Program-made: the position numbers and the translations under genes | The notes under the pieces: generated by a model | Database searches by the model: none | The model's input: only the letters and a program-made list of their open reading frames with translations | Told to the model about the DNA's origin: nothing | Source: an uncultured Planctomycetia bacterium | Lineage (GTDB): Bacteria > Planctomycetota > UBA8108 > UBA1146 | Reading direction: 5' to 3' | Assembly: GCA_964412635.1 (NCBI GenBank) | Contig: CAYPPQ010000001.1 | Location: forward strand, 46,382-110,381 | DNA length: 64,000 nucleotides | In this document: positions 31,092 through 47,407 of the stretch, piece by piece | Layout: the number at the start of each line of letters is the position of its first letter | Position numbering within the stretch: the first letter of the stretch is position 1

Positions 31092-31105
31092 CGGGATCCG
31101 GAATC

Positions 31106-32668
31106 TTACCAGACTCCATCATCCCTGCGGGGACCGGTCGCCGCGGAACGTAAATCCTCCGGCAACAACTCGTCAGGGAATCCCTGCCAGCACACCGGGC
31201 GTAGAAATCTCTGCATCGCTGAGGCACCCACCGAGGTCCACCGCGAGTCGGTGGTGGCAGGCCATGGTCCGCCATGATGCATCGCTTCTCCGACCTCGAC
31301 ACCGGTGGGCATTCCGTTGAAAAGAACCCTACCAGCACGATCCTCGAGGATGTCGAGCAGGCGATGATGTTGTTGCAACTCGCCGGTAGTCGCATGAACC
31401 GTGGCGGTCAGTTGGCCTTCCAGCACGCTGGCGGTCTCCAGCATCTGATCGATACTCTCGCACTCCACCAGCAGCGTGCACGGTCCGAACACTTCCGCCT
31501 GCAGCTGCGAATCGTCGATGAACCTGCGGGCATCCGCAGCCAGCAGGGATGCCTCGGCATCGCAGTTCCCCTGGCTCGCGGGTCCACTGGCAACAACCTC
31601 CACCCCGCTTCGAGCCGCCAGTTGCTTCAGCGTTCCGGCATAGCCGTTAGAGATTCCCTCGTGAAGCATCGTTCCCGCCGGCTCGCTACAGAGTCCCTTC
31701 GACAGCGCATCCCGGAACTGTTCGCGACCCTCACCCTTGTCGATGAAGAGGACCCCGGGACAGGTGCAGAACTGACCGACACCCAGCCTGACGCTGGCTG
31801 CGATGTCGGAAGCGATCTCCTGTCCCCGATTGGCCTGGGCCTCCGGCAAGATGAAGACGGGATTGGTGCTCCCCATCTCGGAGAACACCGGAACCGGGAT
31901 CGGCCGCTGTGCGGCCATCCGCCACAGTGCCACCCCACCCGATCGTGATCCGGTGAAGGCGACCGCAGCGATGGAAGGGTGCTGTACCAGATTCGCTCCC
32001 ACGTCGAAGGATTCGCCCTGAACCAGGCTGAACATTCCCGGGGGCATCCCCACATCACGCACCGCTTCCTGAAGGGCACGACCGACCAGTTCACAAACTC
32101 CGGGGTGAGCCGGATGCCCCTTGGCCACCACCGGACAACCGGCAGCCCATGCACTGGCGGTATCGCCCCCGGCGATACCGAAGGCGAGTGGAAAATTACT
32201 GGCTCCGAAAACGGCGACCGGTCCAACCGGCCGCATCCGCCGACGCAGATCCGGTCGGGGAATCGGCTGTCGATCGGGAAGTGCCGTTTCGATGATGGTC
32301 TCGGTGAAGAGGCCTTCCCTCAGCACCCTTGCGAACATTCGAAGTTGTTGACAGGTTCGCCCACGCTCCGCCTCGAAGCGGCCCGCGGGAAGACCGGTCT
32401 CCTCGACTCCCCGGGCGGTGATGGCGTCACCATTCTCTTCGATGCGATCGGCTGCAGCTTCCAGCAACCGGGCTCGTTCGGTGACGGCGTCTGCCGCCCG
32501 TGATCGATGGGCATCCTCGGCAGCCCTCACCGCCATCTCGATCACCTCGGCGGTCGCCTCCGCAAAGATGGGCTCGAGGGACTCGCCGGTGGAAGGATTG
32601 CAGCCTCGCAGGGATCCCGATCCGCTCAACGACTCCCCGGCAACGAGGTGAACTCCTTCTATCGTCAT
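31106..32668 (-). CDS. NAD(P)-dependent aldehyde dehydrogenase, alpha-ketoglutarate-semialdehyde / 2,5-dioxovalerate dehydrogenase-like
   Basis: The ALDH catalytic region is VAFTGSRSGG...FSEMGSTNP...GQFCTCPG. It is 520 aa with KGSADH-type architecture. Confidence 0.75.
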   Translation of the reverse strand: MTIEGVHLVAGESLSGSGSLRGCNPSTGESLEPIFAEATAEVIEMAVRAAEDAHRSRAADAVTERARLLEAAADRIEENGDAITARGVEETGLPAGRFEAERGRTCQQLRMFARVLREGLFTETIIETALPDRQPIPRPDLRRRMRPVGPVAVFGASNFPLAFGIAGGDTASAWAAGCPVVAKGHPAHPGVCELVGRALQEAVRDVGMPPGMFSLVQGESFDVGANLVQHPSIAAVAFTGSRSGGVALWRMAAQRPIPVPVFSEMGSTNPVFILPEAQANRGQEIASDIAASVRLGVGQFCTCPGVLFIDKGEGREQFRDALSKGLCSEPAGTMLHEGISNGYAGTLKQLAARSGVEVVASGPASQGNCDAEASLLAADARRFIDDSQLQAEVFGPCTLLVECESIDQMLETASVLEGQLTATVHATTGELQQHHRLLDILEDRAGRVLFNGMPTGVEVGEAMHHGGPWPATTDSRWTSVGASAMQRFLRPVCWQGFPDELLPEDLRSAATGPRRDDGVW

Positions 32669-32669
32669 C

Positions 32670-33617
32670 TCAATTCTCCTTCACATCCTGCATTGGATTG
32701 TTGGCAAGGCAGTCGCGGATCACATGAAGTGCTCCTTCTCGAAGTGCCCCGGTCGCTGGAAAACGAGGTGGTCGAACCGTTTCCGTTCCCATCTCGACCT
32801 CCTTCTGGACCAGCTTGATCAACTGGACGAACTCTGGCACGCAGTCGAGACGAAGCAGCGGAAGAAACCACCGGTAGAGTTCATCTGCCTGACGGGCAAC
32901 TGCCGGGTCATCGAGACCTCGAACCGCCCTGTCAAAGAGAACCACTGATTCCATCGGTAACGCATTCACCAGGCCTGCAACCCAGCCAACCGCGCCTTGA
33001 CGGACCGCTTCTACCACCATGTCGTCGAGACCGGCGAAGAGCGCCAGTCGATCCCCCACCAGCGAATGCACCGCCGTGATCCGACGAGAATCTCCACTGG
33101 AGTCCTTCACCGCCTTCAACTGGGGAAACTTGTCCGCCAGATCTGCGATCCATCCCGGAGGAAAGTCGACTCCGTAGGCGATGGGATTGTTGTAAAGCAT
33201 GCAGGGAAGATCGGTGGCGGCCATCACCGCTTCGACGTGTACTTCCACCTCGAAGAAGGGACCCTTGTGGATGTAGGGTGGCAGTACCATCAAGCCGGAC
33301 GCCCCCATCACCTTGGCGGTGGCCGCCAGGCGACCCGCTTCTCTCGTCGAGGCCGCGGCGATTCCCGGAATCACCGGCACTCTTCCCTCCACCGCCTGAA
33401 CCACGGTATCGAAGATTCGCTGCTTCTCATCGAAGGAGAGTGTCGCTCCCTCGCCAAGAGAGCCACATGGAATGATGCCGGTCGCTCCATGATCCACCAG
33501 CCAGCGACAGTGCTGGGACAGAAAAGCATGATCGACCTCGTCTGATTCGGTGATGGGAGTGGTCACTGCGGGCATCACTCCAGCCCAGGTCAACGAGCGG
33601 GTCGGTGCTGAACTCAT
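32670..33617 (-). CDS. DapA/dihydrodipicolinate-synthase-family lyase (candidate 1-pyrroline-4-hydroxy-2-carboxylate deaminase or KDG-type aldolase)
   Basis: It has the class I aldolase TIM barrel with AVTTPITESDEVDHAFLSQHCRWLVDHGATGII and the Schiff-base Lys region KAVKDSSGD. Confidence 0.75.
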   Translation of the reverse strand: MSSAPTRSLTWAGVMPAVTTPITESDEVDHAFLSQHCRWLVDHGATGIIPCGSLGEGATLSFDEKQRIFDTVVQAVEGRVPVIPGIAAASTREAGRLAATAKVMGASGLMVLPPYIHKGPFFEVEVHVEAVMAATDLPCMLYNNPIAYGVDFPPGWIADLADKFPQLKAVKDSSGDSRRITAVHSLVGDRLALFAGLDDMVVEAVRQGAVGWVAGLVNALPMESVVLFDRAVRGLDDPAVARQADELYRWFLPLLRLDCVPEFVQLIKLVQKEVEMGTETVRPPRFPATGALREGALHVIRDCLANNPMQDVKEN

Positions 33618-33709
33618 CAGTCTCCTCCTGGTTCGATGTGTGGAACAGATACAGATCGTGCCTCATGGGGAGTGATCGGGAAAGAAGTCATCTGGGATCG
33701 ACCAGCGAA

Positions 33710-34663
33710 TCAGGAGTGGCGGGAGCGACGGGTGACCAGCAGAAACAGCACCGGTGCGCCCAGTGCCGCAGTCACCACCCCGACCGGTATCTCCCGGGCA
33801 CTCCAGATCACCCTTCCCACCGCATCGCACAGTGGCAGGAACACCATTCCGAGCAGGATCGAGGCGGGCAGCAACGTCCTCGGCGCCGATCCCAGCAATC
33901 TCCGGATGATGTGAGGACAGATCAGGCCGACAAAGGCGATGGGACCCGAAACTGCCACACACGCCGCCACGCCGATGGAAGCGAGGCCGAGACCGAGCGT
34001 GCGGGTACGTGACACATCGACTCCTCTGGTTCGTGCCCTCTCGATTCCGGAAACCAGCACCTCGAGGGGACGGATCAGCAGCAGCATTCCCACCAGCGCG
34101 ATGCTCACCAGCGGTAGCAACATGAGGATTCGGTTCCAGCCGACCGTCGATAGCGAACCGAGTGACCATCGTTGAGCACCGAGTATTGCAGCAGGATCGA
34201 TGCCGATCTGCAATCCCGAGGCGAGTGCTCCACTCGCCAGTGTCAGTGCAATTCCCGCCAGTAGAACATCCTCGGTACGCGCGCTGTTTCGAGCCGCCAC
34301 CGTCGCGATCACCATCGTCACCGCCAGCGCACCGAGGAAGGCAGCGGCAGGAAGTACAGGGATCCCCAGCAGGGAGGTGGTCCCACCCCCCATCACCAGG
34401 GCAATAAGTACGCCGAGGGTCGCCCCCGCAGTGGTTCCGATGGTGCTCGGAGTCGCCAGCGGGTTCTTCAGCAGGATCTGCATCACCACTCCCGATGCCG
34501 ACAGGACCGCCCCGACCAGCGCCCCCATCAGTGCACGGGGTAGGCGTAAGCGGTTGAGAATCAGATCGCCGCCCTCACCCTCCAGCGAGGGTCCAACCCA
34601 CGCGGTGGAGAACACCACTCCGATCGACAACAGGAGCCAGGGGAACCATCGCAGAGAATTCAT
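33710..34663 (-). CDS. ABC transporter permease, FecCD/BtuC family
   Basis: It is 10-TM FecCD-like. The probable start MNSLRWFPWLLL overlaps the ATPase stop (ATGA); the ORF track extends to 34789. Confidence 0.8.
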   Translation of the reverse strand: MNSLRWFPWLLLSIGVVFSTAWVGPSLEGEGGDLILNRLRLPRALMGALVGAVLSASGVVMQILLKNPLATPSTIGTTAGATLGVLIALVMGGGTTSLLGIPVLPAAAFLGALAVTMVIATVAARNSARTEDVLLAGIALTLASGALASGLQIGIDPAAILGAQRWSLGSLSTVGWNRILMLLPLVSIALVGMLLLIRPLEVLVSGIERARTRGVDVSRTRTLGLGLASIGVAACVAVSGPIAFVGLICPHIIRRLLGSAPRTLLPASILLGMVFLPLCDAVGRVIWSAREIPVGVVTAALGAPVLFLLVTRRSRHS

Positions 34664-35442
34664 CAGAGCAGCGCTTCCTGGCTGGGAATCCAGAACTCGC
34701 GATTGCCGGTAGTGGCTCTCTGAAACGGAATGCCGTGCACCCTCTCGAGCCCCTCCCCGAATCCATCGTCCCCCATTTTCCCCTGCCACTCGATGCGACC
34801 CTGCCTCAGCCCGACCACGTCGACATCGCAGCCATCGACATGACCGAGCAGATGAACGTCATGAATCACGACCAGCACCGTGTTCCCCTCGGCAACCCGA
34901 TTCGAGAGAAAGCGCAAGGTCCTCGCCCGCCATACCGGATCGAGGTGATTGGCAGGTTCATCGAGGAGCCATGTCCCCGATTCCTGGGAGAGCATCGATG
35001 CCAGTTCGACTCTCTGCCTCTCTCCTCCGGAGAGTTCGTTGATCCAGCGCTCGGCAAGTTCCGTTGCACCCGCCTCTTCGAGAGCACGCCGGGCCGCATC
35101 GTGGGCAGATTTCCGCGACTCCTCGAAACGATAGCGGGCGGCGATCACCACATCCTCCACCCTCAATCGTTCCGGCGACAATCCCTGTTGCGGCAACCAC
35201 GCCAGTCGTGCCGCTCGATCGCACAACTTGATCGATGAAAGATCCTCACCATCGAGGCGCACGGTACCGGAATCGAGGGGAGTCAAACCCAGCAACACTC
35301 TCAACAAGGTGCTCTTGCCGGAACCGTTGGGACCGATGATGGCGACCAGTTGCCCCCGCTCCACCTCCAGTGACAACTCCTTCAGGATCGGAACTTCACC
35401 GCCGTTGACGGTCGCTTTCTCGAGGGAGATGACGGTTACCAT
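34663..35442 (-). CDS. ABC transporter ATP-binding protein (FepC/BtuD type)
   Basis: It has Walker A GPNGSGKSTLL, the signature LSGGERQRV, and Walker B LLDEP. Confidence 0.85.
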   Translation of the reverse strand: MVTVISLEKATVNGGEVPILKELSLEVERGQLVAIIGPNGSGKSTLLRVLLGLTPLDSGTVRLDGEDLSSIKLCDRAARLAWLPQQGLSPERLRVEDVVIAARYRFEESRKSAHDAARRALEEAGATELAERWINELSGGERQRVELASMLSQESGTWLLDEPANHLDPVWRARTLRFLSNRVAEGNTVLVVIHDVHLLGHVDGCDVDVVGLRQGRIEWQGKMGDDGFGEGLERVHGIPFQRATTGNREFWIPSQEALL

Positions 35443-36380
35443 CGGCGATCTCCTGGAGAGAGACGGTTCAACTCCGCGGCGATCGAATCGACAAGATCGA
35501 GCAACTCCGGTCCCTCATCGAGGATGCGCTCGTGATGTATCGAACCGATGGTGCCCCGCTGAACAGCCTTCAATGCGGTGAGCTTCTCGTAGCCACCGAC
35601 GATCTGCTGGCGCGCTTCTTGCGACGGTTCTTTTGCCGGAACCAGGTGCAGGATGAAATCGGGATCGATCCGCAATAACTGCTCCAGCGAAATTTGCGGC
35701 GCACCGGAGAGAGGATCTTCGATGGCATTGCTGTATCCAGCAGCGTGGAGGGCAGCCCCGTGCAATGAGTTGGTCTTGATGATCCATGGCCCACCGCTGC
35801 CACCGCTATCGATACCGATCACCAGCAAGACCGTTGGGGCGTCGGCGGGAGCAGCACCCGAGAGCACCGTCTCGAATCGACTCGCCAGAAGGTCTGCCTC
35901 TTGCCGCTTCTTCACCACCTCGCCGATGCTACGAATACTTGCGGCAACCTGTGAAACCGATGACCAGGGCAGGATCAGTGGATCTCCCACCTGTGACAGT
36001 TCCTGCACGGGGACACCGACCGCTGCACGAATCAACAGGGTCGGACTGCCGCTGCGGACAATCCTCTCAAGGTCCGGCACCAGTGCCGTTCCACCTCGCT
36101 GGAGATTCTCGACGGGGGGGCAATAGTCACTGATCATCGCCAGTGAATCATCGGCACCGATCGCCAGCAGCGTGGCAGTGATGCAAGGTGCCAGCGAAAC
36201 CACGGAACCGACCGCATCTACCGATTCAACCGGGACAGAACCCACCGGATCGCCGCTCTGTAACAGACCGGCAAACAGTGAACCCGCCACGGCGAGCAGG
36301 AAGATGATGATGATGGATCCACGGTCCAAGGGTCTCTCCGATCTTGACGTCCTCGTGAAGATACCCGATCCAGCGGCCAC
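35436..36380 (-). CDS. periplasmic substrate-binding protein, class III (FhuD/BtuF/TroA-like)
   Basis: It has a signal/TM segment (IIIIFLLAVAGSLFAG) then about 270 aa with the two-lobe layout of siderophore/cobalamin-type binding proteins. It sits directly upstream of the ATPase and permease. Confidence 0.6.
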   Translation of the reverse strand: MAAGSGIFTRTSRSERPLDRGSIIIIFLLAVAGSLFAGLLQSGDPVGSVPVESVDAVGSVVSLAPCITATLLAIGADDSLAMISDYCPPVENLQRGGTALVPDLERIVRSGSPTLLIRAAVGVPVQELSQVGDPLILPWSSVSQVAASIRSIGEVVKKRQEADLLASRFETVLSGAAPADAPTVLLVIGIDSGGSGGPWIIKTNSLHGAALHAAGYSNAIEDPLSGAPQISLEQLLRIDPDFILHLVPAKEPSQEARQQIVGGYEKLTALKAVQRGTIGSIHHERILDEGPELLDLVDSIAAELNRLSPGDRRW

Positions 36381-36392
36381 GGCATCCCTCGG

Positions 36393-37931
36393 TCACAAAG
36401 AGTCGCCAGATCGCCCCGGAGAGGTCACCCACGGCGGCCGCACCGAGTCGGTTCCATCGTTACGGCGGGGAGACACCGCAGGGATGCAGATCCGTCCCTG
36501 GCACGGGCCCATTCCGACCCGACACAGCATCCTTGCCTCACGGATGGAAGCGGTGCCGGCCAGCTGTTTCGAGGTCACATCTTCACAGCGACAGACCACC
36601 ACATCGTCAGTCACCAGTTGCTGGAGCTGTGGGCGAAGCTGGTGAGCGGCCTCGAGCGCTTCTCCCCAATCTCGATGACGCCTGACCCTGGCGAGAAGAT
36701 GGGCACGAGGGGTTCGTCCCGTCGCGACGATTCCTGCCACCAGCCCGCTATCCAGCGCCGCATCACTGCCGGCGATTCCCGTCGGCTCCCCTGCGCACAG
36801 GATGCCGTCGATCCCACTTCGCTGGAGGCGATCGACGATCACGGCACCGTTTTCTCCGATCCGACATCCGAGTCCCTGGGCTACCCTCGTCTCGGGGATC
36901 AGACCGAATCCCACCGCCAGACCATCCACCTCCTCGACTCGCACACCCTTGTCGGTCCTGAGGTGGACCCGCTCGACTCGTCCATCTCCCTCCACCTTGA
37001 TGGGCCAGCAAGAGGAGAGTTTCTCGACGCCACGAAGCGATTTCCACAGTTGCATCGCCTGCTTCATCCGCGACCTCGAGCTGATCAGCGGCAACAGCAA
37101 TTGCAGACGATCGATGTGGGAGGCCTGTTCGACCAGGAGCGGTTTCGCTCCCTCCTCGACGGCGAGTTGCGCCACCGCCAGGAGCAGCGGCCCGGTCCCC
37201 GCCACCACCAGTCGCTTGCCCCGAACCTGCAATCCTCCCTTGATCAGCGATTGCAACGCTCCGGCACCGACGACCCCGGGCAAGGTCCAGCCGGGGAAGG
37301 GAAGGAAGCGTTCTCTTGCGCCGGTGGCGACGATGATCTGCTGGCACTTCACCGACACCGTGTCGCCGGTCAACACCGAGGTCGCCAGCAGTTCACCTGC
37401 CTTGCCATCGACGACGCTGTAGCCGGACAGCCAGCGAACTCCACCCTTCTCCGCCCGCGCCAACCAGCTGCGGGCAGCGTCGGGAATGTGCCGTCGATGG
37501 GCCCAGATCCGACCGCCTGGCTGCGGCGACTCATCGATCACGAGGACATCTGCACCCAGTTCCGAGGCGGCGCAGGCGGCGGCGATCCCTGCCGGGCCAC
37601 CGCCGATGATGGCGACGGAAACCTCTTCTTGACGCTGTTGAACCGCGCCCACCGCCGGCAGCGGAGATGGGGTGAGATCCTGTTCCGTCTCGATGCTCAT
37701 GCCGTCGCGCACCGGAACCAGACAACTTCTCACCCCTCGATGTCCGTCGACGGTGATTCGACACTCGTGACAGACTCCCATGGCACATAACGCACCTCGG
37801 GGTTCACCCCCCACCGACTTGCGGAGACTCACGACCCCGACACCCATCAGGGCTGCGGCCAGTTGCATCCCCTCCTCGACCTCGATGATGGCGCCGTCGA
37901 CACTGATCCGTACAGACTTCGGATCACTCAT
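36393..37931 (-). CDS. fused [2Fe-2S]-ferredoxin / FAD-pyridine-nucleotide-disulfide oxidoreductase / BFD-like [2Fe-2S] protein (HcnA+HcnB / opine-oxidase-subunit-A-like)
   Basis: The N-terminus has CAMGVCHEC 2Fe-2S cysteines. The Rossmann fold is VAIIGGGPAGIAAA. The C-terminal BFD-like segment is VVCRCEDVT...GMGPCQGRIC. I chose the internal start MSDPKSVRI, whose ATG overlaps the TGA of the upstream gene; the ORF track extends to 38171. Confidence 0.7.
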   Translation of the reverse strand: MSDPKSVRISVDGAIIEVEEGMQLAAALMGVGVVSLRKSVGGEPRGALCAMGVCHECRITVDGHRGVRSCLVPVRDGMSIETEQDLTPSPLPAVGAVQQRQEEVSVAIIGGGPAGIAAACAASELGADVLVIDESPQPGGRIWAHRRHIPDAARSWLARAEKGGVRWLSGYSVVDGKAGELLATSVLTGDTVSVKCQQIIVATGARERFLPFPGWTLPGVVGAGALQSLIKGGLQVRGKRLVVAGTGPLLLAVAQLAVEEGAKPLLVEQASHIDRLQLLLPLISSRSRMKQAMQLWKSLRGVEKLSSCWPIKVEGDGRVERVHLRTDKGVRVEEVDGLAVGFGLIPETRVAQGLGCRIGENGAVIVDRLQRSGIDGILCAGEPTGIAGSDAALDSGLVAGIVATGRTPRAHLLARVRRHRDWGEALEAAHQLRPQLQQLVTDDVVVCRCEDVTSKQLAGTASIREARMLCRVGMGPCQGRICIPAVSPRRNDGTDSVRPPWVTSPGRSGDSL

Positions 37932-39106
37932 CGGTGCACGCCAGCGAGGCACAGTTCGATTCGCTCGGCAGCCTGTCCCGCATCGGAGATGGCACCCGCC
38001 AGAGATGCTCTTCTGGCCACCTCGAGGAGGTGATCCAGATCCCGTTGCAGATCGATGCGGTGCAGCAGCATCGGATGTGGTTGGTGTCCGTTGAGCCACG
38101 CCGTGAAGGCGAGTCCCGCCTTGTACAGATGAGTCGGTGCTTCGAAGACCTTCTGACCGTACTTTTCGCACGGCTCCATCCAGCGTCGATAGCCCTCGAC
38201 ATCCCCCGCCGCCAGGTGTCTCAGCGCACGACCGGCCGGTACCGCAACACCATCGAGCACTCCCAGCAGCGCGTGACTGAAATCTCCGGCAGGAACCTGT
38301 CGATCCCCCAGGGACACCGACCTGGTCGGGTGGGTTCCCGTCCCTTCCATCAGCGAACTGAAGTGGAAGTCGTCCCCGGTGAGGACGATCTGATCCCGCT
38401 CGCTGCAGCGGCGGCGCACATCCACCTCTAGATCGTGGTCCAGCATCGACATCTTGACCCCTCGAACCTTTTCGGGGTCGATGTCGAGTATTCGCTGCAG
38501 AGAATCTCCGGGAAAGTAACCCTCCAGTTCCGCCAGGAACATCGGGCCGAGCCAGTGGATGAAGAGCGGGCCTTCACACTGTTCGAAGATGGAGCGATAG
38601 GTGCTGACGAACTGATCCTCATCACACTTCCAGTGACACAAGAGCGGCATCGGCAAGATGATGGGAATGCCCCCTGCACCCTGGATGATTCCCACCTGTT
38701 CGACCACTCCATCGATGAGCGTTTGCACCTGTTCGATTCGATCCAGGTGATCTGCTCCGGCACCGGCGATGAAACCGGTCTCCAGTTGCAGGGCACCGCA
38801 TTCCTCGATGAGCCGACGCGCTGCCGGCCATCCCAGTTCGAAACGCTGCGCCGTGTCCATCGCCTCGGCGATGCCAAAACCCTGGGTCGCCAGGTGCTGA
38901 CGAAATTCCATCGTCCGTTGCCAGTCGACCTGTTCGCACACCTCGGATCCTTCAGATTCTTGATGATAGGAGTCCTTCAAGATGATGTGGGCCGCAGCGT
39001 ATGCGATGCGCACCGCCGCGGCAGGTTGCGGTTCTGGCTGCCGCTCCAGCACCCCGTCCTCGATGATGACCGGATCCCCGAACGGATTGGCAAGTTCGAT
39101 CTTCAT
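37928..39106 (-). CDS. conserved hypothetical protein (about 392 aa, soluble, function unknown)
   Basis: A long ORF embedded in the coupled operon. The start MKIELANPFGD overlaps the Nramp-like stop (ATGA). I recognise no motif in it. Confidence 0.55.
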   Translation of the reverse strand: MKIELANPFGDPVIIEDGVLERQPEPQPAAAVRIAYAAAHIILKDSYHQESEGSEVCEQVDWQRTMEFRQHLATQGFGIAEAMDTAQRFELGWPAARRLIEECGALQLETGFIAGAGADHLDRIEQVQTLIDGVVEQVGIIQGAGGIPIILPMPLLCHWKCDEDQFVSTYRSIFEQCEGPLFIHWLGPMFLAELEGYFPGDSLQRILDIDPEKVRGVKMSMLDHDLEVDVRRRCSERDQIVLTGDDFHFSSLMEGTGTHPTRSVSLGDRQVPAGDFSHALLGVLDGVAVPAGRALRHLAAGDVEGYRRWMEPCEKYGQKVFEAPTHLYKAGLAFTAWLNGHQPHPMLLHRIDLQRDLDHLLEVARRASLAGAISDAGQAAERIELCLAGVHR

Positions 39107-40536
39107 CCGCTGAGTTTCTCCCACCAACCTGGCACTGCCGTGACCGTCTTCCACACCAGGAAAACGCTGAGCACCACGGTCGCCAGCAGGATCGACCCCT
39201 GCCACAGCAGCGCCCGGATGCCGGTGGGCCTGTCCTCACCGAGATATCTCGCAGATCGCTGCATCTTGAGGATTCCGATGTACACCGCGGGAAGCAAGAA
39301 CCCGGTCAGGATGGTGGTCGGTAGTGCGATCCAGAAGGCGATGTCCCCCCAGTAGACCGCTCCCAGAAAACCGGGGGCGGGGAGCAAGCATGCCAGACGG
39401 AAGCGGGTCGATCCGACCTTCCAGCCGAAGGTCTCACAGGCAGCAAAGCCGCAACAGACCATGTGCATCGTGATGCTACTGGTGACCATGCCGAGCAATC
39501 CCAGGTCGAAGAGGATTCTCGAACTGTCGGCTCCGAAGGTGGTCCCGAGGATCTGCGCCGCATGCTCGGGCTTGAATCCCTTTCCCGGGAACGGGATTCC
39601 ATCCGGCCCGAAAGTATTCGCCGCTGCGATGACGATCAGTGAGGTGGTCAGTAGATAGGGGAGAAACATCCCCGCAAACAGATCGAACCTCGCCAGCGAA
39701 CGGTGTTCTTTTCCCCAGCCTTTCGCCAGCAGCGAATACGGATAGAGAAAAACCATGTTGGCACCGATCGCCGCCGCCAGACCTGCCACGACGATGCTGA
39801 GTGCATCCATCGACTTCGATTCATCTCCCGCAGGGGTGTAAACCTCTCCCACTCCTCCCGGAATGAAACCGGAGAAGAAACCGCCCGGATCGGCGATCCC
39901 TGTCTTGACCACCACGGCGCCGAAGCACAGCACGATCAACCACACCATCACCTGCATACTTCGCTCGAACAGTTTCAGTAATGCAGGGGAACGGCCATAG
40001 GAGAAGGACCAGGTCACCGCCCAGGCCAGCACCAGCAGTCCGCCACCCCAGCGCGGAATCGGATTGCCGGTGACGGCACCGATGTCCTCGATGGCAGCGG
40101 AAGCGAGGGCGTACTGGGCAAAGTGCCAGATGACACTGGAAAGAACTGCACCGGCGATGAAGGCATGAGCGTAGAAGGGACCGGCGTACTCACGGATCGC
40201 CGGCAACGGGCGTTTTCCGGTGGACAGCGTCTGATGCGCCACCGCCGACAGAACTGCCACCCCCAGCAGCATCGAGATGGGGAACACCCACAACAGCTGG
40301 TACCCGAAGGCTCCCCCTGCCAGCAACGTGGCCGCCGCCGTGCCACCGCCGAGGGTCAACGAACTCTGCAGGTATCCCGGTCCGCCACGCCTGAGAAAGG
40401 CACCCCATCGACGGGTGATCGGTGCCTCATCGAGGGTGGTCAGCCACCGTTTCTCCTCGGCCAGTGCCGCGGGATCGGGGGGGGCCACCATCGGTAGTTC
40501 GATCTTCCGGGGAGTCTCTCCTTCGATATCACTCAA
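39103..40536 (-). CDS. Nramp/MntH-family-related membrane transporter with divergent metal-binding motifs
   Basis: It has the GPGYLQSSLTLGGGTAAATLLAGGAFGYQLLWV segment. Canonical Nramp has GPG-L-S-AY-DPGN-ATD-QAGA-FGY-LLWV here, so the DPGN Asp/Asn are replaced by GGGT. It has about 11 TM helices. An MHM replaces MPH in the TM6-like segment. Confidence 0.6.
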   Translation of the reverse strand: MSDIEGETPRKIELPMVAPPDPAALAEEKRWLTTLDEAPITRRWGAFLRRGGPGYLQSSLTLGGGTAAATLLAGGAFGYQLLWVFPISMLLGVAVLSAVAHQTLSTGKRPLPAIREYAGPFYAHAFIAGAVLSSVIWHFAQYALASAAIEDIGAVTGNPIPRWGGGLLVLAWAVTWSFSYGRSPALLKLFERSMQVMVWLIVLCFGAVVVKTGIADPGGFFSGFIPGGVGEVYTPAGDESKSMDALSIVVAGLAAAIGANMVFLYPYSLLAKGWGKEHRSLARFDLFAGMFLPYLLTTSLIVIAAANTFGPDGIPFPGKGFKPEHAAQILGTTFGADSSRILFDLGLLGMVTSSITMHMVCCGFAACETFGWKVGSTRFRLACLLPAPGFLGAVYWGDIAFWIALPTTILTGFLLPAVYIGILKMQRSARYLGEDRPTGIRALLWQGSILLATVVLSVFLVWKTVTAVPGWWEKLSG

Positions 40537-41981
40537 CGGGATTCCCTCTCCCTCGCCCTCGCCTTGGCCGATTTCAACTCGGCAGCAGCGGGGTGAGACT
40601 TGTAGTGGTCATCGAGCGGGAAACAGCCGCTCAACAATCCGTTTCTCGGCGCAGTGGTACAGTCGCTGAAGGTTCTGCATACCAGCTTCTTCGGCATCGC
40701 GCGGCCATGGATGACATCTCTCGGCAGTTGCGGGTAGGAGAGCATCGATCGGCCAAGGCCGATCACGTCCTGGTGACCCGCAGCGATCTCGTGCTGAGCC
40801 ACGGCGGCAAGCCATTCCTGCAGGTAAGTCCAGCCGGTTCCCACCAGACCAGCAGTAGAGAAGTGCTGACGTACACTCCTGGCCGCCTGGATGTGACTGG
40901 CAACTCCCACCAGGGGATCTTCGGGAGGTGCATAACCATCACTGGGTGGATACTGGGCGGGTCGCTGACGATGGGGACACCAGTACGGAGATCCGATCGT
41001 CAGGTTGAACCACTCGACTCCTTCATCGAGTAGCAGCTGGATCAACTGGAACGGTTCATCCCACTGCGGTGTTCGTGGATCCCCGGGATCGAGGCCAAAC
41101 CCGTGCTCGTATCTCTCCCCCGACGGCCAGTCCGGTTCCCCATCGCCGCCGGTGGACTTGCGGAAGGGAATCATATCGGTGATCGAGATGCGAACGGCGA
41201 CGTCGATTCCGGGAACCTCGCTAGCGACTGTAGCGATGATGTCTCGCAACAGACGGCTTCTTCCCTGCAGATCACCTCCGTAGCGACCGGGGCGACTCCG
41301 TGCCGACAGCAGTTCGTGCATCAGGTAGCCGTGACACGCCTTGATATCGACGAAATCAAATCCGACCTTGTGCGCACACCTCGCCACCGAGATGTATCGC
41401 TCGGCAATCGCTTCCAGCTCTCCATCGGTGAGGATCTGATCGCTAGTGGCGGATACCCTGCTATCGAGGATCGGATGTTCGAAGGCGATGCGCGGCGCTG
41501 GACCGTCGGATGTGGGACGAGACCAGCGACCGGAGTGGGTCAGTTGCAATCCCACCACCGAATCCTTCGGCGCCTCTTCGCCGGCGAGGGTGTGCCCCTC
41601 CTTCAACGCCGACAGAAGCGATTCCAGCGACCGGCAGGTCGAATCATCGTCGTGATGGAACAGCTGGTTGGGATTCGCCTTCCCATCTTCCCTGACGGCA
41701 AATGCCTCACCTCCCCAGATCAGTGCCGCACCACTCTCCCCGAAGTTTTGCCAGCGCCTGAGGGTGTGTTGCGAAGGAGATCCATCTTGCAGGGCATCCC
41801 AGCCCTCCATCGGATGAACTGCGAAGCGATTCGACAGCTTCCAGCCGCCCTTCTCGAGGGGGGATGCGAGGGGGCCGAAAGCCTCCACCTCATCATCGAG
41901 ATCGAGCTGCGGATCGATCGACTTCCAGTGATCGCGAAAGGACTCCACATCCCGATACCGATTGGGAGACTTGATCTTCAA
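40533..41981 (-). CDS. Old Yellow Enzyme family NADH:flavin oxidoreductase (FMN-dependent ene-reductase-like)
   Basis: It has the OYE signature FDFVDIKACHGYLMHELLS (compare HAAHGYL). The probable start is the TTG at 41981, after a GGAGGA RBS and overlapping the enolase TGA. The ORF track extends to 42080. Confidence 0.75.
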   Translation of the reverse strand: MKIKSPNRYRDVESFRDHWKSIDPQLDLDDEVEAFGPLASPLEKGGWKLSNRFAVHPMEGWDALQDGSPSQHTLRRWQNFGESGAALIWGGEAFAVREDGKANPNQLFHHDDDSTCRSLESLLSALKEGHTLAGEEAPKDSVVGLQLTHSGRWSRPTSDGPAPRIAFEHPILDSRVSATSDQILTDGELEAIAERYISVARCAHKVGFDFVDIKACHGYLMHELLSARSRPGRYGGDLQGRSRLLRDIIATVASEVPGIDVAVRISITDMIPFRKSTGGDGEPDWPSGERYEHGFGLDPGDPRTPQWDEPFQLIQLLLDEGVEWFNLTIGSPYWCPHRQRPAQYPPSDGYAPPEDPLVGVASHIQAARSVRQHFSTAGLVGTGWTYLQEWLAAVAQHEIAAGHQDVIGLGRSMLSYPQLPRDVIHGRAMPKKLVCRTFSDCTTAPRNGLLSGCFPLDDHYKSHPAAAELKSAKARARERESR

Positions 41982-43384
41982 CCCTTCTCCTCCATGCGGC
42001 TTGCAATCACCGTTCTTCTGCTTCCCTCGGATGGACGCACGGTACAACCGTAGCCTTCGCAATCGAGTGAAGAGATGCACAGCACCCCGTTCTCGATGAG
42101 AAGTTCATCACCTCTGTGGATCGAACGGTACAGGTCGGGATGATCCTTCAGTAGTTGTGAGGATTCATCGCTGGTGAGGTGATCGAGTCCCCTGAAGTAG
42201 TGGTGACCATTTCTCTCGACGTGAGTCAAACCGAGCGCCGCAACGGTCAAGAGATCCTGATGCAATCCCCACGGTGGAAGACAGGTCAAATCCTCGCCGC
42301 TGACAAACGCTCCTGCACCATGGGCCTGGCACAATCCTTGATGGGCGATCGACCGGGACACTCCCTTGCAGTTCTTCGATGAGACTCCCAGGTACCCGAG
42401 CCCTAACGCCTCCGGAAATGCCTCGGGACCATGGTCCGCCTCGTCGATGATCACCGGCCCATGGCGAGACAACTCGGTCGGAGCAGAAGCCGCCTCGAAG
42501 GTCTTTGATCTGGGAACCGGCTGTTCGATGCTGACGATCGCCTCGAGGAAAGCGACCCCATCTGCTGACATGTTCAGTTCGTCGAGAACTGCAGCGAGGG
42601 ATGCTGGATCTTCGTACTGCTCGTTCCCATCGAGTGTCACACGATAGCCGTCTCCCGATTCTCGTCGCAGGATCGCTGCGATCTGCTGGAGCCTCTCCAG
42701 GTCATGATCGGGGTCTCCACCGACCTTGACCTTGAACCAGCGGAGGCCGTGACGACGGATATCCTCCACCAGCGTCACCGGCAGACCATCTTCCACCGAA
42801 TCATCCGATCTCTCCTCGAGATCATCCAGCAATCCGACGGTGTGGCGCACCGAGATCGTTGGCGGTAGCGGAGACGGTGTGAACTTCCAGTCCTGAAGTT
42901 GCGGATGAAATCGATGAGGTTCGATTCCGAACAGTCCCACCTCCAGCGATTGAAGGAAGGGAAGTCCGACTCCACGGCACGCGGCATCCATCAGGGCTCT
43001 TTCCCAGATGGCACAGCCGAGTCCCCGGGTCAGGCGATCTTCCGCAGTGACAGGAGTTGCCAGAACCCGATCTTCCAGCATCCGCCAGTAGTGATCGAAG
43101 ACGGTGGAACAGGATCCATCGAGCAATACATCTCCCGCCATCGAGATGCTATCGACGAGAGACTGGATATCCTCCTCCACCGATCGCAGGAGGTTTTTCT
43201 CGAACCAGCGGGGAACCAGTAACTCGGAGGTGTATCCCCTCAGTAACGTTCCCGTCGATGTTTCTGCGGTGACGGTGGCAATCGCCATCGGTGCATCGGT
43301 GAGGGTATGTACCCCGAAACGAAAGGGGATGCGCGTTGTGCATTCCTGGATCTCAACTTCGAGTTCCTTCACCGAGATACGCAC
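41978..43384 (-). CDS. enolase-superfamily enzyme (mandelate racemase / muconate lactonizing enzyme family)
   Basis: It has the MR/MLE N-terminal capping domain plus barrel with WFKVKVGGDPDHD...TLDGNEQY...IIDEAD metal-ligand spacing, and is 468 aa. Confidence 0.7.
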   Translation of the reverse strand: MRISVKELEVEIQECTTRIPFRFGVHTLTDAPMAIATVTAETSTGTLLRGYTSELLVPRWFEKNLLRSVEEDIQSLVDSISMAGDVLLDGSCSTVFDHYWRMLEDRVLATPVTAEDRLTRGLGCAIWERALMDAACRGVGLPFLQSLEVGLFGIEPHRFHPQLQDWKFTPSPLPPTISVRHTVGLLDDLEERSDDSVEDGLPVTLVEDIRRHGLRWFKVKVGGDPDHDLERLQQIAAILRRESGDGYRVTLDGNEQYEDPASLAAVLDELNMSADGVAFLEAIVSIEQPVPRSKTFEAASAPTELSRHGPVIIDEADHGPEAFPEALGLGYLGVSSKNCKGVSRSIAHQGLCQAHGAGAFVSGEDLTCLPPWGLHQDLLTVAALGLTHVERNGHHYFRGLDHLTSDESSQLLKDHPDLYRSIHRGDELLIENGVLCISSLDCEGYGCTVRPSEGSRRTVIASRMEEKG

Positions 43385-43501
43385 GGGACTCCCTTTCGAT
43401 GGATTGCAGGTCGTGATCTCCAGTGAAGATCATCTCGACAGGTCGTGGCGACCTCGACGGCAGTCACCCCCCTCACCATCGTGCCGACACATCGGCAGGG
43501 A

Positions 43502-44635
43502 TCAAGAAGTGGCCACCACCCTGGCTGGATCATACGGCTGCGGATCGATGGGAGCAGCCTGACCGAGGATCGAGGAGCAGATCAGTTGCGCCGCAGCGGG
43601 GGCCTGGGTGATCCCCAGTCCCTCGAATCCCGCCGCGATCCACACCGCCGGAACTGCCGGTAACGGGCCGATGAGTGGCCTCGAATCACCGGTTGCCGCC
43701 CGTACACCGCACCAGGTGCGGACGATGGGCAGGCCCGACAGACCGGGAACGAATCTTTCTCCCCGCTCGATGATCTGATCGATCAGCTGTCGATCGACGC
43801 TTCCGGTACTCCTCGAGGATCGACTGGAACCGATGCACAGCTGGCCGGTCGAGCGGGGAAGGATCGCGCACGCCACCGCCTCCTCCACCTTGCCGTGAGC
43901 ACCCTTCTGGTAGCCCGCCTCCACCACGTGATGGGAGAGGATTCCGGTTCCCCGGGCGGTGATGGCGAGCTGTCCTTCTCTTGGGAAAATCGAAACCTCG
44001 ACCCCCGTCTCTTGACACAGATCGAGCGCATCGATTCCGGTGGCGATGACGATGGCATCCGCCTCCTTGACGAGTCCGTCCTCGAGGTGAACCCGATTCG
44101 ATTCAACTCGCATCACTCGAACTCCGCAGGTCAGCTTCGCTCCCCCTTTGACCGCCTCCTCCATCACCGCTGCGGTGGCGATCGGAGCATAGAGGACACC
44201 GTCATCGGGAACTCTCATGCCGCCGACCAGATCAGCAGCGAGAGCAGGTTCCAGCTCCAGAATCTGTGCGCTGTCGACCATCTCGGTGTTGATTCCTGCA
44301 CCCTGTAATCTGGTCGATGCTTCGCCCAGCTGACGGAAGGATTCCTCATCCTCCGCCATCCACAACGTGCCCGACTCGATGAACCCATCGGGGCAAGTCG
44401 TGATGGGAGAATCTTCACGCCAGATCTGTCTTCCGAGGATGCACAGTCGCATCCCCGCTTCGTCCCCATCGTTGACGACGATGTGACCCATCCCTGCTGC
44501 GGTGGCTCCCCGAACTCCCGCTGCCTCACCCGCCTCGAGTACTTCCACTTCAGCACCGGCTCTGACCAGTTCCCTCGCACAGCACGCGCCAACGATCCCG
44601 GCACCCAGAACCAGCACCTTGATGTTGCCCTTCAT
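43502..44635 (-). CDS. FAD-dependent oxidoreductase (DadA/HcnC/opine-oxidase-subunit-B-like amino-acid dehydrogenase)
   Basis: It starts MKGNIKVLVLGAGIVGACCARELVRAGAEVEVLE (GxGxxG plus acidic residue) and has the DAO-family fold. The ORF track extends to 44695, but the ATG at 44635 fits the dinucleotide-fold start. Confidence 0.8.
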   Translation of the reverse strand: MKGNIKVLVLGAGIVGACCARELVRAGAEVEVLEAGEAAGVRGATAAGMGHIVVNDGDEAGMRLCILGRQIWREDSPITTCPDGFIESGTLWMAEDEESFRQLGEASTRLQGAGINTEMVDSAQILELEPALAADLVGGMRVPDDGVLYAPIATAAVMEEAVKGGAKLTCGVRVMRVESNRVHLEDGLVKEADAIVIATGIDALDLCQETGVEVSIFPREGQLAITARGTGILSHHVVEAGYQKGAHGKVEEAVACAILPRSTGQLCIGSSRSSRSTGSVDRQLIDQIIERGERFVPGLSGLPIVRTWCGVRAATGDSRPLIGPLPAVPAVWIAAGFEGLGITQAPAAAQLICSSILGQAAPIDPQPYDPARVVATS

Positions 44636-45720
44636 CGTCCTACCTCGCTGGCGATGACCGCCTGTCGGTAGACCTCTACAGTTTCCGTGGCACATCGCTG
44701 CCAGGTGAAGGTACCGGCGTACTCCATCGCTCTCTTTCTTCGATCGGTGTCATGTCCCACTGCTCTGTGCAGTGCCTGTGCAATCGACTGCGGATCTTGC
44801 TGCTGACACGTTTCCGCAGCTCCAGCAGCGATCTCCGGGGTTGCGCCGCTGGCAGAGATCACCACCGGAGTGCCACAAGCCATCGCTTCCAGCACGGGAA
44901 GCCCGAATCCCTCGTAATGAGTGCAATAGAGGAGCGCACGAGCACTGGAGTAGAGGGCAGGAAGAACATCGTCGCCGAGCCAACCCACCAGCTGCACCCT
45001 GCCCATTCCCACCTCATCGATCCAGTCGATCAGTTCATCGCCACCGAATGTTGGATCGCCGGCGATGACGAGGGGCACATCTCCCAGCTCTGCCGCCAGG
45101 AACCCCCGCACCATTCCCCGGATGTTCTTTCGCTTCGACAGATCTCCGACGTAGATGACAGCATCGGATGGAATCTGTCGTTCCTGCAGCAAGCGATCGG
45201 CTCGATCACGCTCGACCGGTCTGAACAACGGATCGATCCCGTGGCGAACCACCACCACCTTGTCCGGATCGCAATCGACTCCATCGAGGAAATCTCGGCG
45301 GGTCGTATCACTGACTGCGATGATCCTGTGACAATCGGTGGCTACCGACTGATACGCCTCCAGTTTCTTGGCTCGGAACTGCGCAGTGGAAATCGACCCC
45401 CCCACTCGCTCTTCTGGAAGCAAGTGAACGACATCGTGAAGGGTCGCGACCCTGGGAGAATTCCATCGAGGCACCCTCGAGTCGGTGACATGGATCACAT
45501 CCGATCGACCACCCGGTGGCCACCACGGTTCCTGGATCCAGAACCTCTTCACGGAAGGAATGCGTAGTCGGTGGCGATGGCGATGGAGATGAGAGCAGCG
45601 GGTTCCCAGGGTCAGTGAAGTCCCCAGGTCCGCAAGTGCCCTCGCCAGCTGGGTGGTGTAACGACCGATCCCGGTTGGACGAGGAGTACAAGCTGCAGTG
45701 GCATCGATGGCGATCCGCAC
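44632..45720 (-). CDS. glycosyltransferase family 4 (GT-B)
   Basis: The C-terminal signature is EGFGLPVLEAMACGTPVV. It has a 4-nt overlap with the downstream DadA-like gene. Confidence 0.75.
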   Translation of the reverse strand: MRIAIDATAACTPRPTGIGRYTTQLARALADLGTSLTLGTRCSHLHRHRHRLRIPSVKRFWIQEPWWPPGGRSDVIHVTDSRVPRWNSPRVATLHDVVHLLPEERVGGSISTAQFRAKKLEAYQSVATDCHRIIAVSDTTRRDFLDGVDCDPDKVVVVRHGIDPLFRPVERDRADRLLQERQIPSDAVIYVGDLSKRKNIRGMVRGFLAAELGDVPLVIAGDPTFGGDELIDWIDEVGMGRVQLVGWLGDDVLPALYSSARALLYCTHYEGFGLPVLEAMACGTPVVISASGATPEIAAGAAETCQQQDPQSIAQALHRAVGHDTDRRKRAMEYAGTFTWQRCATETVEVYRQAVIASEVGR

Positions 45721-45753
45721 GTTACCTCCCGTCAGAGAATAGGACAGGATCGA

Positions 45754-46692
45754 TTACAGGTCGATGCCATGTCGGAATGGATCTTCCTCCTGGAAGAGAA
45801 GGGTCCCCTCACCGCACAGATGGGCACGTCCACGAATCGTCGGGGCGATCCCCCCCTCCACCTGCCGGAAGGTGCCGGTGAAACGGGTTCCGAGGATACC
45901 GACCTGTGTCCACTGATCCCCCTCTGCCAGCGAGTTGCGTGCGTGCTGACAGGCGATGGTGGCACTGGTCCCGGTCCCGCACGGCGATCGATCCCACTGC
46001 TTCCCCGGACACAACACGAAGGAGCGCACCCCCGCTCCCTCATCTGCGGGTAGCGGTTCGTGGAGATCGATGTGATCGATCTCCTCTCCTGCCGCTCCGG
46101 TGATGCCCCGATCCACCAGTTGCTCCCGGATGTCGCTGGCAACCGACGTCAGCTCTGCGAGATTTTCGAGGGTGACGGCGATCGCTGGAGAGCGGGCGAT
46201 GAAGAACCAGTTCCCCCCCCAGGCGATATCCCCCACCACCTCCTCGCCGTCGGAGAGGGTGACGGTGCAATCGGCTTCGGTGCGATAACTGACGACATTC
46301 TGTACCGAGATCTCTCCATCATCTTCGAGATGCAGATCAACCACCCCCGCTGGAGTCTCCAGCTTGCAGTGTCCCGAGTCGATTCGACCGAGGTGGCGCA
46401 ATGCTTCGACCACCCCCATGGCACCATGTCCGCACATTCCAAGGGTTCCCACGTTGTTGAAGAAGATCACCCCGGCGTGGCAATCGGGGAGGCTACTCTC
46501 CAGCAGCAAGGCACCGACCATCGCCTCATGACCCCTTGGCTCCCTGACGATGCCGCGGCGCAGTGGATCATGGCTCTTCTTCCACTCCTCACAGCGCTGG
46601 GCCAGCGATCCCGAGCCCAGATCGGGGATCCCGGAGATGACGACCCGGGTCGGCTCGCCGGCGGTATGGGTATCGATGTATCCGATCTGCAT
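45754..46692 (-). CDS. proline racemase / 4-hydroxyproline 2-epimerase family enzyme (two-Cys type)
   Basis: It has DTHTAGEPTRVV, the first catalytic Cys in GMCGHG, and the second in SPCGTGTSA. I chose the ATG at 46692 with an AAGGTGG RBS; the ORF track extends to a GTG at 46701. Confidence 0.8.
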   Translation of the reverse strand: MQIGYIDTHTAGEPTRVVISGIPDLGSGSLAQRCEEWKKSHDPLRRGIVREPRGHEAMVGALLLESSLPDCHAGVIFFNNVGTLGMCGHGAMGVVEALRHLGRIDSGHCKLETPAGVVDLHLEDDGEISVQNVVSYRTEADCTVTLSDGEEVVGDIAWGGNWFFIARSPAIAVTLENLAELTSVASDIREQLVDRGITGAAGEEIDHIDLHEPLPADEGAGVRSFVLCPGKQWDRSPCGTGTSATIACQHARNSLAEGDQWTQVGILGTRFTGTFRQVEGGIAPTIRGRAHLCGEGTLLFQEEDPFRHGIDL

Positions 46693-46703
46693 GGCAGCCA
46701 CCT

Positions 46704-47384: not shown

Positions 47385-47407
47385 GTGGCGATCTCATTTC
47401 TCTGTGG

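Follow-up and report, generated by a model that had tools for sequence, protein, structure and literature searches.

The DNA analyzed here is a 64,000-nucleotide stretch (the window) from an uncultured Planctomycetia bacterium (contig CAYPPQ010000001.1, positions 46,382 to 110,381), in which minus-strand genes run unbroken from 30138 to 48625. Five of these genes are predicted to degrade trans-4-hydroxy-L-proline (t4-L-Hyp; Hyp, hydroxyproline), and they encode a Pro_racemase-family epimerase, a DAO-family flavoprotein, a fused Fe-S flavoprotein (the fusion), a DapA-family protein, and an aldehyde dehydrogenase (ALDH). Other genes are interleaved with them at three positions. A GT4 glycosyltransferase gene separates the epimerase gene from DAO, four genes that we call the cassette (enolase-like, Old Yellow Enzyme (OYE)-like, Nramp-like, and DUF993) lie between DAO and the fusion, and an ABC importer lies between the fusion and the DapA-family gene. 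The locus is probably a composite, with a Hyp operon as its backbone and three unrelated blocks inserted in one narrow clade of marine planctomycetes.

Organization of the Locus

An earlier, preliminary description of this DNA, made from the sequence alone, had given the gene order, the families, the junctions, and the minus strand, all of which were confirmed by a check of the open reading frames (ORFs), by Pfam, and by reading the junctions. It had also counted eleven genes between 43384 and 31106. The families and their order stand, but the range holds ten genes, because EamA ends at 30138 and so falls outside it. The positions are collected in Table 1.

The genes are tightly packed. The enolase/OYE and OYE/Nramp junctions read TTGA, and the Nramp/DUF993 and DUF993/fusion junctions read ATGA. 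An ATGA junction absent from the preliminary description joins GT4 and DAO, where the GT4 stop codon overlaps the DAO start. Further downstream there is a 12-nucleotide gap between the fusion and the binding protein, an overlap of 7 nucleotides between the binding protein and the ATPase, and an overlap of 1 nucleotide between the ATPase and the permease. Gaps of 1 and 14 nucleotides separate DapA from ALDH and ALDH from EamA, respectively. The 4-nucleotide overlaps recur in the independent gene calls of relatives, which supports the start codons chosen in the window. For the epimerase there is an alternative GTG start at 46701.

TABLE 1. Genes of the minus-strand array and the matches on which their assignments are based
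Gene product	Position	Strand	Basis
icd (Iso_dh)	47408-48625	minus	Pfam
Class I O-methyltransferase (Methyltransf_3)	46704-47384	minus	Pfam E = 9e-33
4-Hydroxyproline 2-epimerase (Pro_racemase), predicted	45754-46692	minus	Pfam E = 1.6e-83
GT4 glycosyltransferase, insertion 1	44632-45720	minus	Pfam Glycos_transf_1 + Glyco_transf_4
DAO-family FAD enzyme, presumed D-HypDH beta subunit	43502-44635	minus	Pfam DAO E = 7e-57
Cassette gene 1, enolase-superfamily MLE-type (MR_MLE_C)	41978-43384	minus	Pfam
Cassette gene 2, OYE-like FMN oxidoreductase (Oxidored_FMN)	40533-41981	minus	Pfam 80 bits
Cassette gene 3, Nramp/SLC11-fold membrane protein	39103-40536	minus	Pfam Nramp 86 bits
Cassette gene 4, DUF993, 392 aa	37928-39106	minus	Pfam E = 2e-84
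Fused gamma-alpha D-HypDH subunit (Fer2_4 + Pyr_redox_2), predicted	36393-37931	minus	Pfam
Peripla_BP_2 binding protein, insertion 3	35436-36380	minus	Pfam
ABC ATPase (ABC_tran), insertion 3	34663-35442	minus	Pfam
FecCD permease, insertion 3	33710-34663	minus	Pfam
DapA-family protein, presumed delta1-pyrroline-4-hydroxy-2-carboxylate deaminase	32670-33617	minus	Pfam DHDPS E = 3e-53
Aldehyde dehydrogenase, presumed alpha-ketoglutarate semialdehyde dehydrogenase	31106-32668	minus	Pfam Aldedh
EamA/DMT transporter	30138-31091	minus	Pfam EamA 58 bits

Predicted Hydroxyproline Core Enzymes

The epimerase matches the 4-Hyp-epimerase-type structures in the Protein Data Bank (PDB codes 4q60, 4k7x, 4j9w, and 2azp, the last being PA1268) at E-98 to E-87, as against E-40 for true proline racemases (ProR) and E-30 for trans-3-Hyp dehydratase. 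The catalytic pair is kept as Cys87 (in MCGH) and Cys238 (in SPCGTG), and the top NCBIfam model is 4-hydroxyproline epimerase, with 368 bits.

Heteromeric D-hydroxyproline dehydrogenase (D-HypDH) contains a catalytic DAO-type beta subunit with an RxW motif for FMN, a gamma subunit with the motif C-x4-C-x2-C-x11/12-C, and an alpha subunit with GxGxxG and C-x-C...C-x4-C (PMC4575208). The DAO protein of the window carries GxGxxG at residues 11-16 and RxW at residues 306-308. The fusion carries C-x4-C-x2-C-x12-C at residues 49-70, GxGxxG at residues 110-115, and C-x-C...C-x4-C at residues 447-482, so that the two proteins together hold every cofactor motif defined for the heteromeric enzyme. Because the gamma motif, GxGxxG, and the alpha cysteine cluster are all found on one protein, the fusion is read as a gamma subunit joined to an alpha subunit. 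Its best solved match is 1y56_A (E = 1.4e-17, covering residues 5-243), and many of its ~7,950 homologues are labeled "D-hydroxyproline dehydrogenase subunit alpha" by JGI. The top NCBIfam match of the DAO protein is ThiO, under the cut-off of that model.

The DapA-family protein has a Schiff-base lysine, Lys171, in the motif VKDSSGD. That it might be a true DHDPS had been named beforehand as a finding that would speak against a Hyp pathway; with 162 bits it stays under the 206-bit cut-off of the true-DapA equivalog. Solved DHDPS structures match it at E-33 or weaker. The ALDH matches 3v4c at E = 4e-138 and 1eyy at E = 5e-121, and its catalytic Cys301 lies in GQFCTCPG. Neighboring DAAO, DHDPS, and ALDH genes are the signature of 4-Hyp epimerase pathways (PMC4113996). 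Homology and context thus support the assignment of all five core proteins to a t4-L-Hyp set.

Compact Relatives and the Three Proposed Insertions

Five distant homologues of the fusion (39-45% identity) from Acidobacteria and unclassified metagenome bins (loci L085, L086, L087, L090, and L091) were looked up for their gene context. All five lie in compact operons with Pro_racemase, DAO, fusion, and DHDPS genes in the order of the window, and an Aldedh gene usually stands before or after them. In each of the five the DAO and fusion genes overlap, with no genes intervening. In the window, the same two genes lie 5.6 kb apart and are separated by four unrelated genes. Compared with the compact operons, the proteins of the window are 47-50% (epimerase), 36-41% (DAO), 39-44% (fusion), and 52-54% (DapA-family protein) identical to their counterparts, and the ALDH is 46-51% identical to those of L085 and L086. 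The cassette, the GT4 gene, the ABC importer, and the O-methyltransferase gene are absent from all five operons. The order in the window is thus that of the ancestral compact operon with three inserted blocks, the order of the Hyp genes being unchanged.

Only in four loci, L001, L005, L006, and L010, is the cassette flanked by Hyp genes, GT4, the ABC importer, icd, and fpg; these loci belong to the window's own clade (65-69% identity of the enolase-like protein). The GT4 gene, found in clade loci only, and the ABC importer are both present in L001, L006, and L010. The proteins of the four metagenome-assembled genomes (MAGs) with this arrangement are only 51-83% identical. The five Hyp genes are co-conserved in the distant genomes examined, whereas the accessory blocks are tied to them only in the clade of the window. 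The preliminary assignment to a Hyp-family pathway is sustained by the epimerase matches, the D-HypDH motifs, and the five compact operons with their 36-54% identical counterparts.

Proteins of the Cassette

For the enolase-like protein, a PDB sequence search gave no match, and the best profile search hit had E = 0.002. It has the features of the MLE subgroup, with a capping domain, a modified TIM barrel, Asp/Glu/Asp metal ligands, KxK on strand 2, and a lysine on strand 6. The residues Lys218, Lys220, Asp252, Glu287, Asp314, and Lys337 are invariant and are situated at the ends of barrel strands 2-6. The catalytic set is MLE-type, a set that does not tell epimerase, dehydratase, and cycloisomerase chemistry apart. 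A structural model of the protein is only 15-16% identical to 2pmq and 4mgg, no closer than to muconate cycloisomerases, and with 2pmq (16%) the identity does not exceed that to unrelated enzymes of the MLE subgroup.

The OYE-like protein matches Oxidored_FMN above the cut-off, but the match spans only positions 4-231 of the 342 positions of the profile. Against thermophilic-type OYEs, the match reaches E-16 over residues 38-272, which is two thirds of the barrel. In the motif K-A-C-H-G-Y a conserved lysine takes the place of the first histidine (K-x-x-H-G-Y for H-x-x-H-G-Y), and the second histidine and the tyrosine are kept. Near the C terminus, at about residues 434-452, the motif CRTFSDCTTAPRNGxxSGC is conserved in 22 orthologues. 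In its C-x5-C-x11-C spacing it is presumably similar to a section of the 4Fe-4S loop found in OYE relatives of the 2,4-dienoyl-CoA-reductase type. Downstream of the three-cysteine motif there is no FAD/NADPH domain.

In SLC11 proteins the aspartate of the first transmembrane helix (TM1) is universally conserved, and its mutation strongly compromises transport (PMC8806188). The TM1-TM6 motifs are DxxN-AxxM for Nramp, DxxG-TxxA/T for NRMT, and DxxN-AxxT for NRAT (PMC8806188). The Nramp-like protein passes the Pfam Nramp threshold with its 86 bits. Its best PDB match is the Mg2+ transporter EleNRMT (7qia; E = 2e-6), and the alignment spans all transmembrane helices. The part of the alignment between GPG and FGxxLWV, which has no gaps, places G-G-G-T of TM1 at the position of DPGN, and TM6 reads A-A-I-G (A-x-x-G). 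Of 104 family representatives that could be anchored, 98 have the pattern G-[GAS]-G-[ST] at the DPGN position and none of the 104 has an aspartate there; the pattern is also conserved in orthologues. The protein, which the preliminary description had rightly called a metal-site-less Nramp homologue, therefore appears to have an SLC11 fold without the metal-binding residues. We take the glycine-rich pattern to resemble the G-S/A-G with which APC amino-acid transporters form their unwound TM1. This is a small family: a search of 1.84 billion representatives yields 671 clusters at 50% identity (E <= 1e-3). Many of its representatives (set P0361-P0510) are about 600 residues long and contain an insertion that splits the match in two.

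The fourth protein had been listed as an unknown of 392 residues. The length was right, but the protein belongs to Pfam DUF993 and has a solved homologue, PDB 4dnh. It is a TIM barrel of the DHDPS/NAL fold with an invariant lysine, Lys218, on the sixth strand, and from this position we infer that Lys218 corresponds to the lysine that forms the Schiff base in that family. An alignment of DUF993 with the DapA-family protein of the window by hhalign gave a probability of 0.04 and thus no sequence relation to DHDPS, so the relation between DUF993 and DHDPS is structural only. No mention of DUF993, PF06187, or 4DNH was found in the literature, nor of the families of the cluster in combination, and SMc04132 appears there in one expression table only. 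An exact-sequence look-up of the DUF993 protein of the window returned no record.

Distribution and Modularity of the Cassette

Homologues number over 7,600 for the enolase-like protein and about 5,500 for DUF993. A scan with one genome per species gave 588 loci, of which 80 were fetched and, together with 4 other loci, mapped with the proteins of the window (84 in total). The four cassette genes are contiguous and in the same order in 25 of these 84. At least 21 other loci carry the cassette with no Hyp gene within 10 kb. Stand-alone cassettes with 4-nucleotide overlaps and unrelated neighbors are seen in L088 (62% identity), L089 (53%), L002 (49%), and L004 (46%). The cassette is a tight autonomous operon that occurs alone in most genomes.

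Genes for Gfo/Idh/MocA, DUF993, and AP_endonuc_2, the last a xylose-isomerase-like TIM barrel, come after the enolase-like gene (37-40% identity) in Burkholderiales, Rhodospirillales, and Rokubacteria. These versions are accompanied by TetR regulators and by TctABC (TTT) or NMT1-type ABC transporters. Two hybrids from Phycisphaerales (L016, 10001-16126, and L021, 3467-9422) encode the enolase-like protein, Gfo/Idh/MocA, AP_endonuc_2, the Nramp-like protein, and DUF993. Their Gfo/Idh/MocA protein is 56% identical to the proteobacterial one, so that two enzymes take the slot of OYE while the Nramp-like protein is kept. This suggests that the redox step was swapped by non-orthologous replacement. 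As both the redox partner and the transporter differ among phyla, the invariant core consists of the enolase-like protein and DUF993. No ALDH homologue was found within 10 kb of the stand-alone cassettes or the proteobacterial versions.

Two loci from outside the planctomycetes that lack the cassette, L054 and L082, each contain one weak match to a Hyp family. In L054 (4116-11419; an uncultured proteobacterium), an enolase homologue of 40% identity, without DUF993, lies divergently beside a Pro_racemase-family gene. Further neighbors encode an aconitase/LeuCD-like enzyme of two subunits and a Peripla_BP_6 binding protein of the amino-acid type. This is the sole locus beyond the clade of the window with a proline-family neighbor.

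Large PF06439 (3-keto-disaccharide-hydrolase-like) proteins, some of them fused to cytochrome c, are encoded beside or near stand-alone cassettes (L002, 6039-9894; L088, 16470-20099; L089, 3619-7143; L008, 1556-4744; and L009, 12867-15317). PF06439 was considered as a marker of the cassette substrate and set aside, as only 5 of about 30 loci from planctomycetes have it, and in a phylum where this family abounds the association may be due to chance.

Other Interleaved and Flanking Genes

No specific NCBIfam model reached its cut-off for the GT4 protein. The coupling of GT4 to DAO is kept in L001, L006, and L010, and no sugar-nucleotide or polysaccharide genes adjoin GT4. The third insertion is a complete type II (BtuCDF/FecCD) ABC importer, with Peripla_BP_2, FecCD, and ATPase components encoded together at 33710-36380. 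Among NCBIfam models it comes closest to those for BtuC, heme, and siderophores, with scores far under the respective cut-offs. This FecCD/Peripla_BP_2 importer stands in the middle of an amino-acid catabolic operon, and the window shows no gene for a TonB-dependent receptor, for siderophores, or for cobalamin.

The EamA protein scores 57 bits with TIGR00950, far below the cut-off. It may be a carrier for Hyp or its product and is a tentative member of the unit; the loci of relatives end inside the ALDH gene, and the EamA region lies outside their span. The O-methyltransferase gene adjoins icd in L001, L006, and L010. It is context only, and nothing ties it to the Hyp pathway.

Genomic Setting

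From 12 to 49.5 kb the minus strand carries almost every gene of the window, among them those of the F1Fo ATP synthase operon, icd, and fpg. Shared direction and close spacing thus characterize this stretch of the genome as a whole and give weak evidence for a common function. About 27 minus-strand genes follow one another at 12044-49548, with a Clp ATPase gene (27139-29676) as the sole break and the ATP synthase operon at 16975-23228, and the GC skew is negative across nearly the whole window. The minus-strand run and the negative skew are consistent with a strong leading-strand gene bias.

The GC content is 0.59-0.64 at 30000-48000 and 0.55-0.59 in the remaining window. At third codon positions it is uniform throughout (0.62-0.74). 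The excess of the 30-48-kb region is confined to codon positions 1 and 2 and therefore reflects amino-acid composition. A signature of recent horizontal transfer was considered and rejected as evidence, given the uniform third-position GC content, the housekeeping genes on the flanks, and the lack of mobile-element genes flanking the array. Promoter and terminator scans gave nothing above shuffled expectation and were uninformative on the operon boundaries.

Interpretation of the Locus

The four reactions of the Hyp core are predicted, by homology and context, to be encoded in the window. The two-cysteine epimerase would convert t4-L-Hyp into cis-4-D-Hyp, which the DAO beta subunit and the gamma-alpha fusion would oxidize, by means of flavin and Fe-S centers, to delta1-pyrroline-4-hydroxy-2-carboxylate. 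The DapA-family enzyme would deaminate this product to alpha-ketoglutarate semialdehyde (alpha-KGSA), and the ALDH would take the semialdehyde to 2-oxoglutarate. In the ancestor the five Hyp genes would have formed one compact operon, into which GT4, the cassette, and the FecCD-type importer were inserted later within the clade.

The cassette may serve the uptake and conversion of an anionic organic substrate. The Nramp-fold protein would be the carrier of this compound; a role as an organic importer is suggested because TTT and ABC importers of organic solutes hold its slot in other phyla. The enolase-superfamily enzyme would remove the proton alpha to the carboxylate of a Mg2+-bound substrate, leading to epimerization, dehydration, or cycloisomerization. 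A redox step would be carried out by the OYE-like flavoprotein or, in other versions, by Gfo/Idh/MocA with the TIM-barrel isomerase. DUF993 would process a 2-oxo acid through a Schiff base on Lys218, like the DHDPS/NAL enzymes. It is possible, if somewhat doubtful, that the cassette and its Gfo/Idh/MocA and TTT/ABC variants constitute an undescribed catabolic or salvage pathway for organic anions. The Nramp-fold protein would then be the first SLC11-type carrier of an organic compound in place of a metal ion and, like the APC amino-acid transporters, would bind its substrate through an unwound TM1 rich in glycine (G-x-G-S/T).

For the presence of the cassette within the Hyp operon, we favor a neutral insertion into a long co-directional array; the sharing of the downstream ALDH and a true link to proline derivatives remain as other options. 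Several observations weigh against a composite locus of this kind or against its parts. The 368 bits of the epimerase are under the NCBIfam equivalog cut-off of 450, and the ALDH and DapA assignments depend on context rather than on subfamily-specific models. The mechanism proposed for the cassette is drawn from superfamily chemistry alone, and the link from DUF993 to DHDPS is a structural one. The insertions are translationally coupled to Hyp genes, through ATGA at both GT4/DAO and DUF993/fusion, and the arrangement is retained in four MAGs despite their divergence. Since the coupling is kept across these diverged genomes, selection may favor co-expression, and a functional link is possible. 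The retained coupling, the conservation in four MAGs, and the enolase homologue beside a Pro_racemase-family gene in L054 keep a shared ALDH or a link to proline under consideration.

In an integrated pathway, a single modified imino acid, such as an N-methylated, betaine-type, or glycosylated Hyp, would be the substrate of the whole set from epimerase through ALDH. Import would fall to the Nramp-like protein and the ABC proteins, demethylation or reduction to the OYE-like protein, and the enolase-like protein would work as an HpbD-like epimerase or as a dehydratase of cis-3-Hyp. Tight translational coupling across all junctions, the four diverged MAGs, and the L054 locus with its amino-acid binding protein fit this idea, toward which the preliminary description had leaned on account of the accessory genes. 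We consider it unlikely. At no fewer than 21 loci, and already at 62% identity, the cassette stands by itself with no Hyp gene within 10 kb, and the compact Hyp operons do without the cassette, GT4, and the importer. Elsewhere the enolase-like and DUF993 proteins pair with Gfo/Idh/MocA, xylose-isomerase-like enzymes, and carboxylate (TTT) transporters, and the cassette therefore looks like part of sugar or organic-acid metabolism rather than imino-acid metabolism. The suggestion that the enolase is of the Hyp-betaine or cis-3-Hyp type also finds no support in the identity of just 15-16% to 2pmq and 4mgg. Among the 17 ORFs scanned with Pfam there is no Hyp-betaine gene and neither a Rieske nor another demethylase family.

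Oxidative routes from uronates and aldarates to alpha-KGSA employ an enolase-superfamily enzyme together with one of the DHDPS/NAL fold. The cassette could likewise degrade a sugar acid or lactone to alpha-KGSA or a similar aldehyde and have been recruited in the clade to share the Hyp ALDH, mirroring the galactarolactone cycloisomerase/glucarate dehydratase and KdgD route. The pairing of folds matches such routes, and the ALDH of the window is downstream of both modules. The stand-alone and proteobacterial cassettes, however, have no ALDH homologue within 10 kb, the fold matches do not separate subfamilies, and the role of OYE is left unexplained, which makes this convergence improbable. Still further down the scale, and in our judgment very improbable, is that the DAO protein and the fusion form another heteromeric enzyme in a cluster that serves a different amine. 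Opine dehydrogenase, L-proline dehydrogenase, and the HCN synthase HcnABC have the same subunits and motifs (PMC4575208), and D-proline dehydrogenase is a further candidate. The best solved match of the fusion is indeed the alpha subunit of an archaeal L-proline dehydrogenase complex, and the DAO protein is closest to ThiO among NCBIfam models, below the cut-off. Against this, all five compact operons link the pair with genes for an ALDH, an epimerase of the 4HypE type, and a DHDPS-family protein, a neighborhood published as the hallmark of 4-Hyp pathways (PMC4113996).

On the composite reading, the Hyp genes are a planctomycete example of a known pathway, and the arrangement of the locus is new. 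Judging from its gene content, marine Planctomycetota can probably use hydroxyproline derived from collagen or glycoproteins. The locus also calls for caution in annotation, as translationally coupled arrays can be mosaics of unrelated modules, and adjacency in a single genome may mislead on function. The cassette is a widespread module without a characterized member, combining an enolase branch that has no close solved structure with an SLC11-fold family stripped of its metal site, and it merits a function-discovery effort. Its proteobacterial versions have soluble binding proteins (TctC/NMT1-type) that can be screened for ligands, which makes the question of the substrate directly testable.

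Comparison with Known Systems

The enolase-like protein is 13-22% identical to, and about 100 residues longer than, known MLE enzymes, such as the dipeptide epimerases 3q45 and 3jva, the (chloro)muconate cycloisomerases 2chr and 3dg3, the N-succinyl-Arg/Lys racemase 2p88, and the galactarolactone cycloisomerase 4hpn. Its family has invariant motifs of its own (PFRFG, LLVP(K/R)WF, and HVERNGHHYF). With SLC11/Nramp proteins, the Nramp-like protein shares the fold and the Pfam match but not the metal site, with G-x-x-T in TM1 and A-x-x-G in TM6. Unlike SLC11 genes, its gene lies within a catabolic-type operon, in the slot of the TTT/ABC organic-anion importers of other phyla. The solved DUF993 homologue is SMc04132 of Sinorhizobium meliloti (PDB 4dnh), which has no assigned function. 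Compared with DHDPS, the motifs GxxGE and YNxP are replaced in DUF993 by AMDTAQR and HWLG, and there is no similarity at the sequence level.

The t4-L-Hyp pathway of Pseudomonas aeruginosa and Azospirillum brasilense consists of the epimerase LhpA, the heterododecameric D-HypDH LhpB/E/F, the deaminase LhpC, and alpha-KGSA dehydrogenase. The window encodes enzymes of the same families for the same four reactions, and its epimerase matches PA1268 (2azp) at E = 2e-87. The beta, gamma, and alpha modules of the dehydrogenase carry the published FAD, FMN, and 2Fe-2S motifs, as in the Lhp system, but gamma and alpha are fused here in one polypeptide. In contrast to the published beta-gamma-alpha tandem (PMC4575208), the beta gene is parted from gamma-alpha by the 5.6-kb cassette. 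The window further differs from the Lhp system in its interleaved GT4 gene and FecCD ABC importer, and it has no amino-acid-type transporter or regulator nearby.

A natural gamma-alpha fusion is also found in PH1363 (1y56_A), the alpha subunit of L-proline dehydrogenase from Pyrococcus horikoshii, in which the N-terminal ~120 residues correspond to the gamma subunit (PMC4575208). The fusion of the window differs from PH1363 in its predicted substrate and in its gene context. With the compact operons of L085-L087, L090, and L091, the window shares the five genes, their order, and the gamma-alpha fusion, and it differs from them by three insertions totaling about 9.6 kb.

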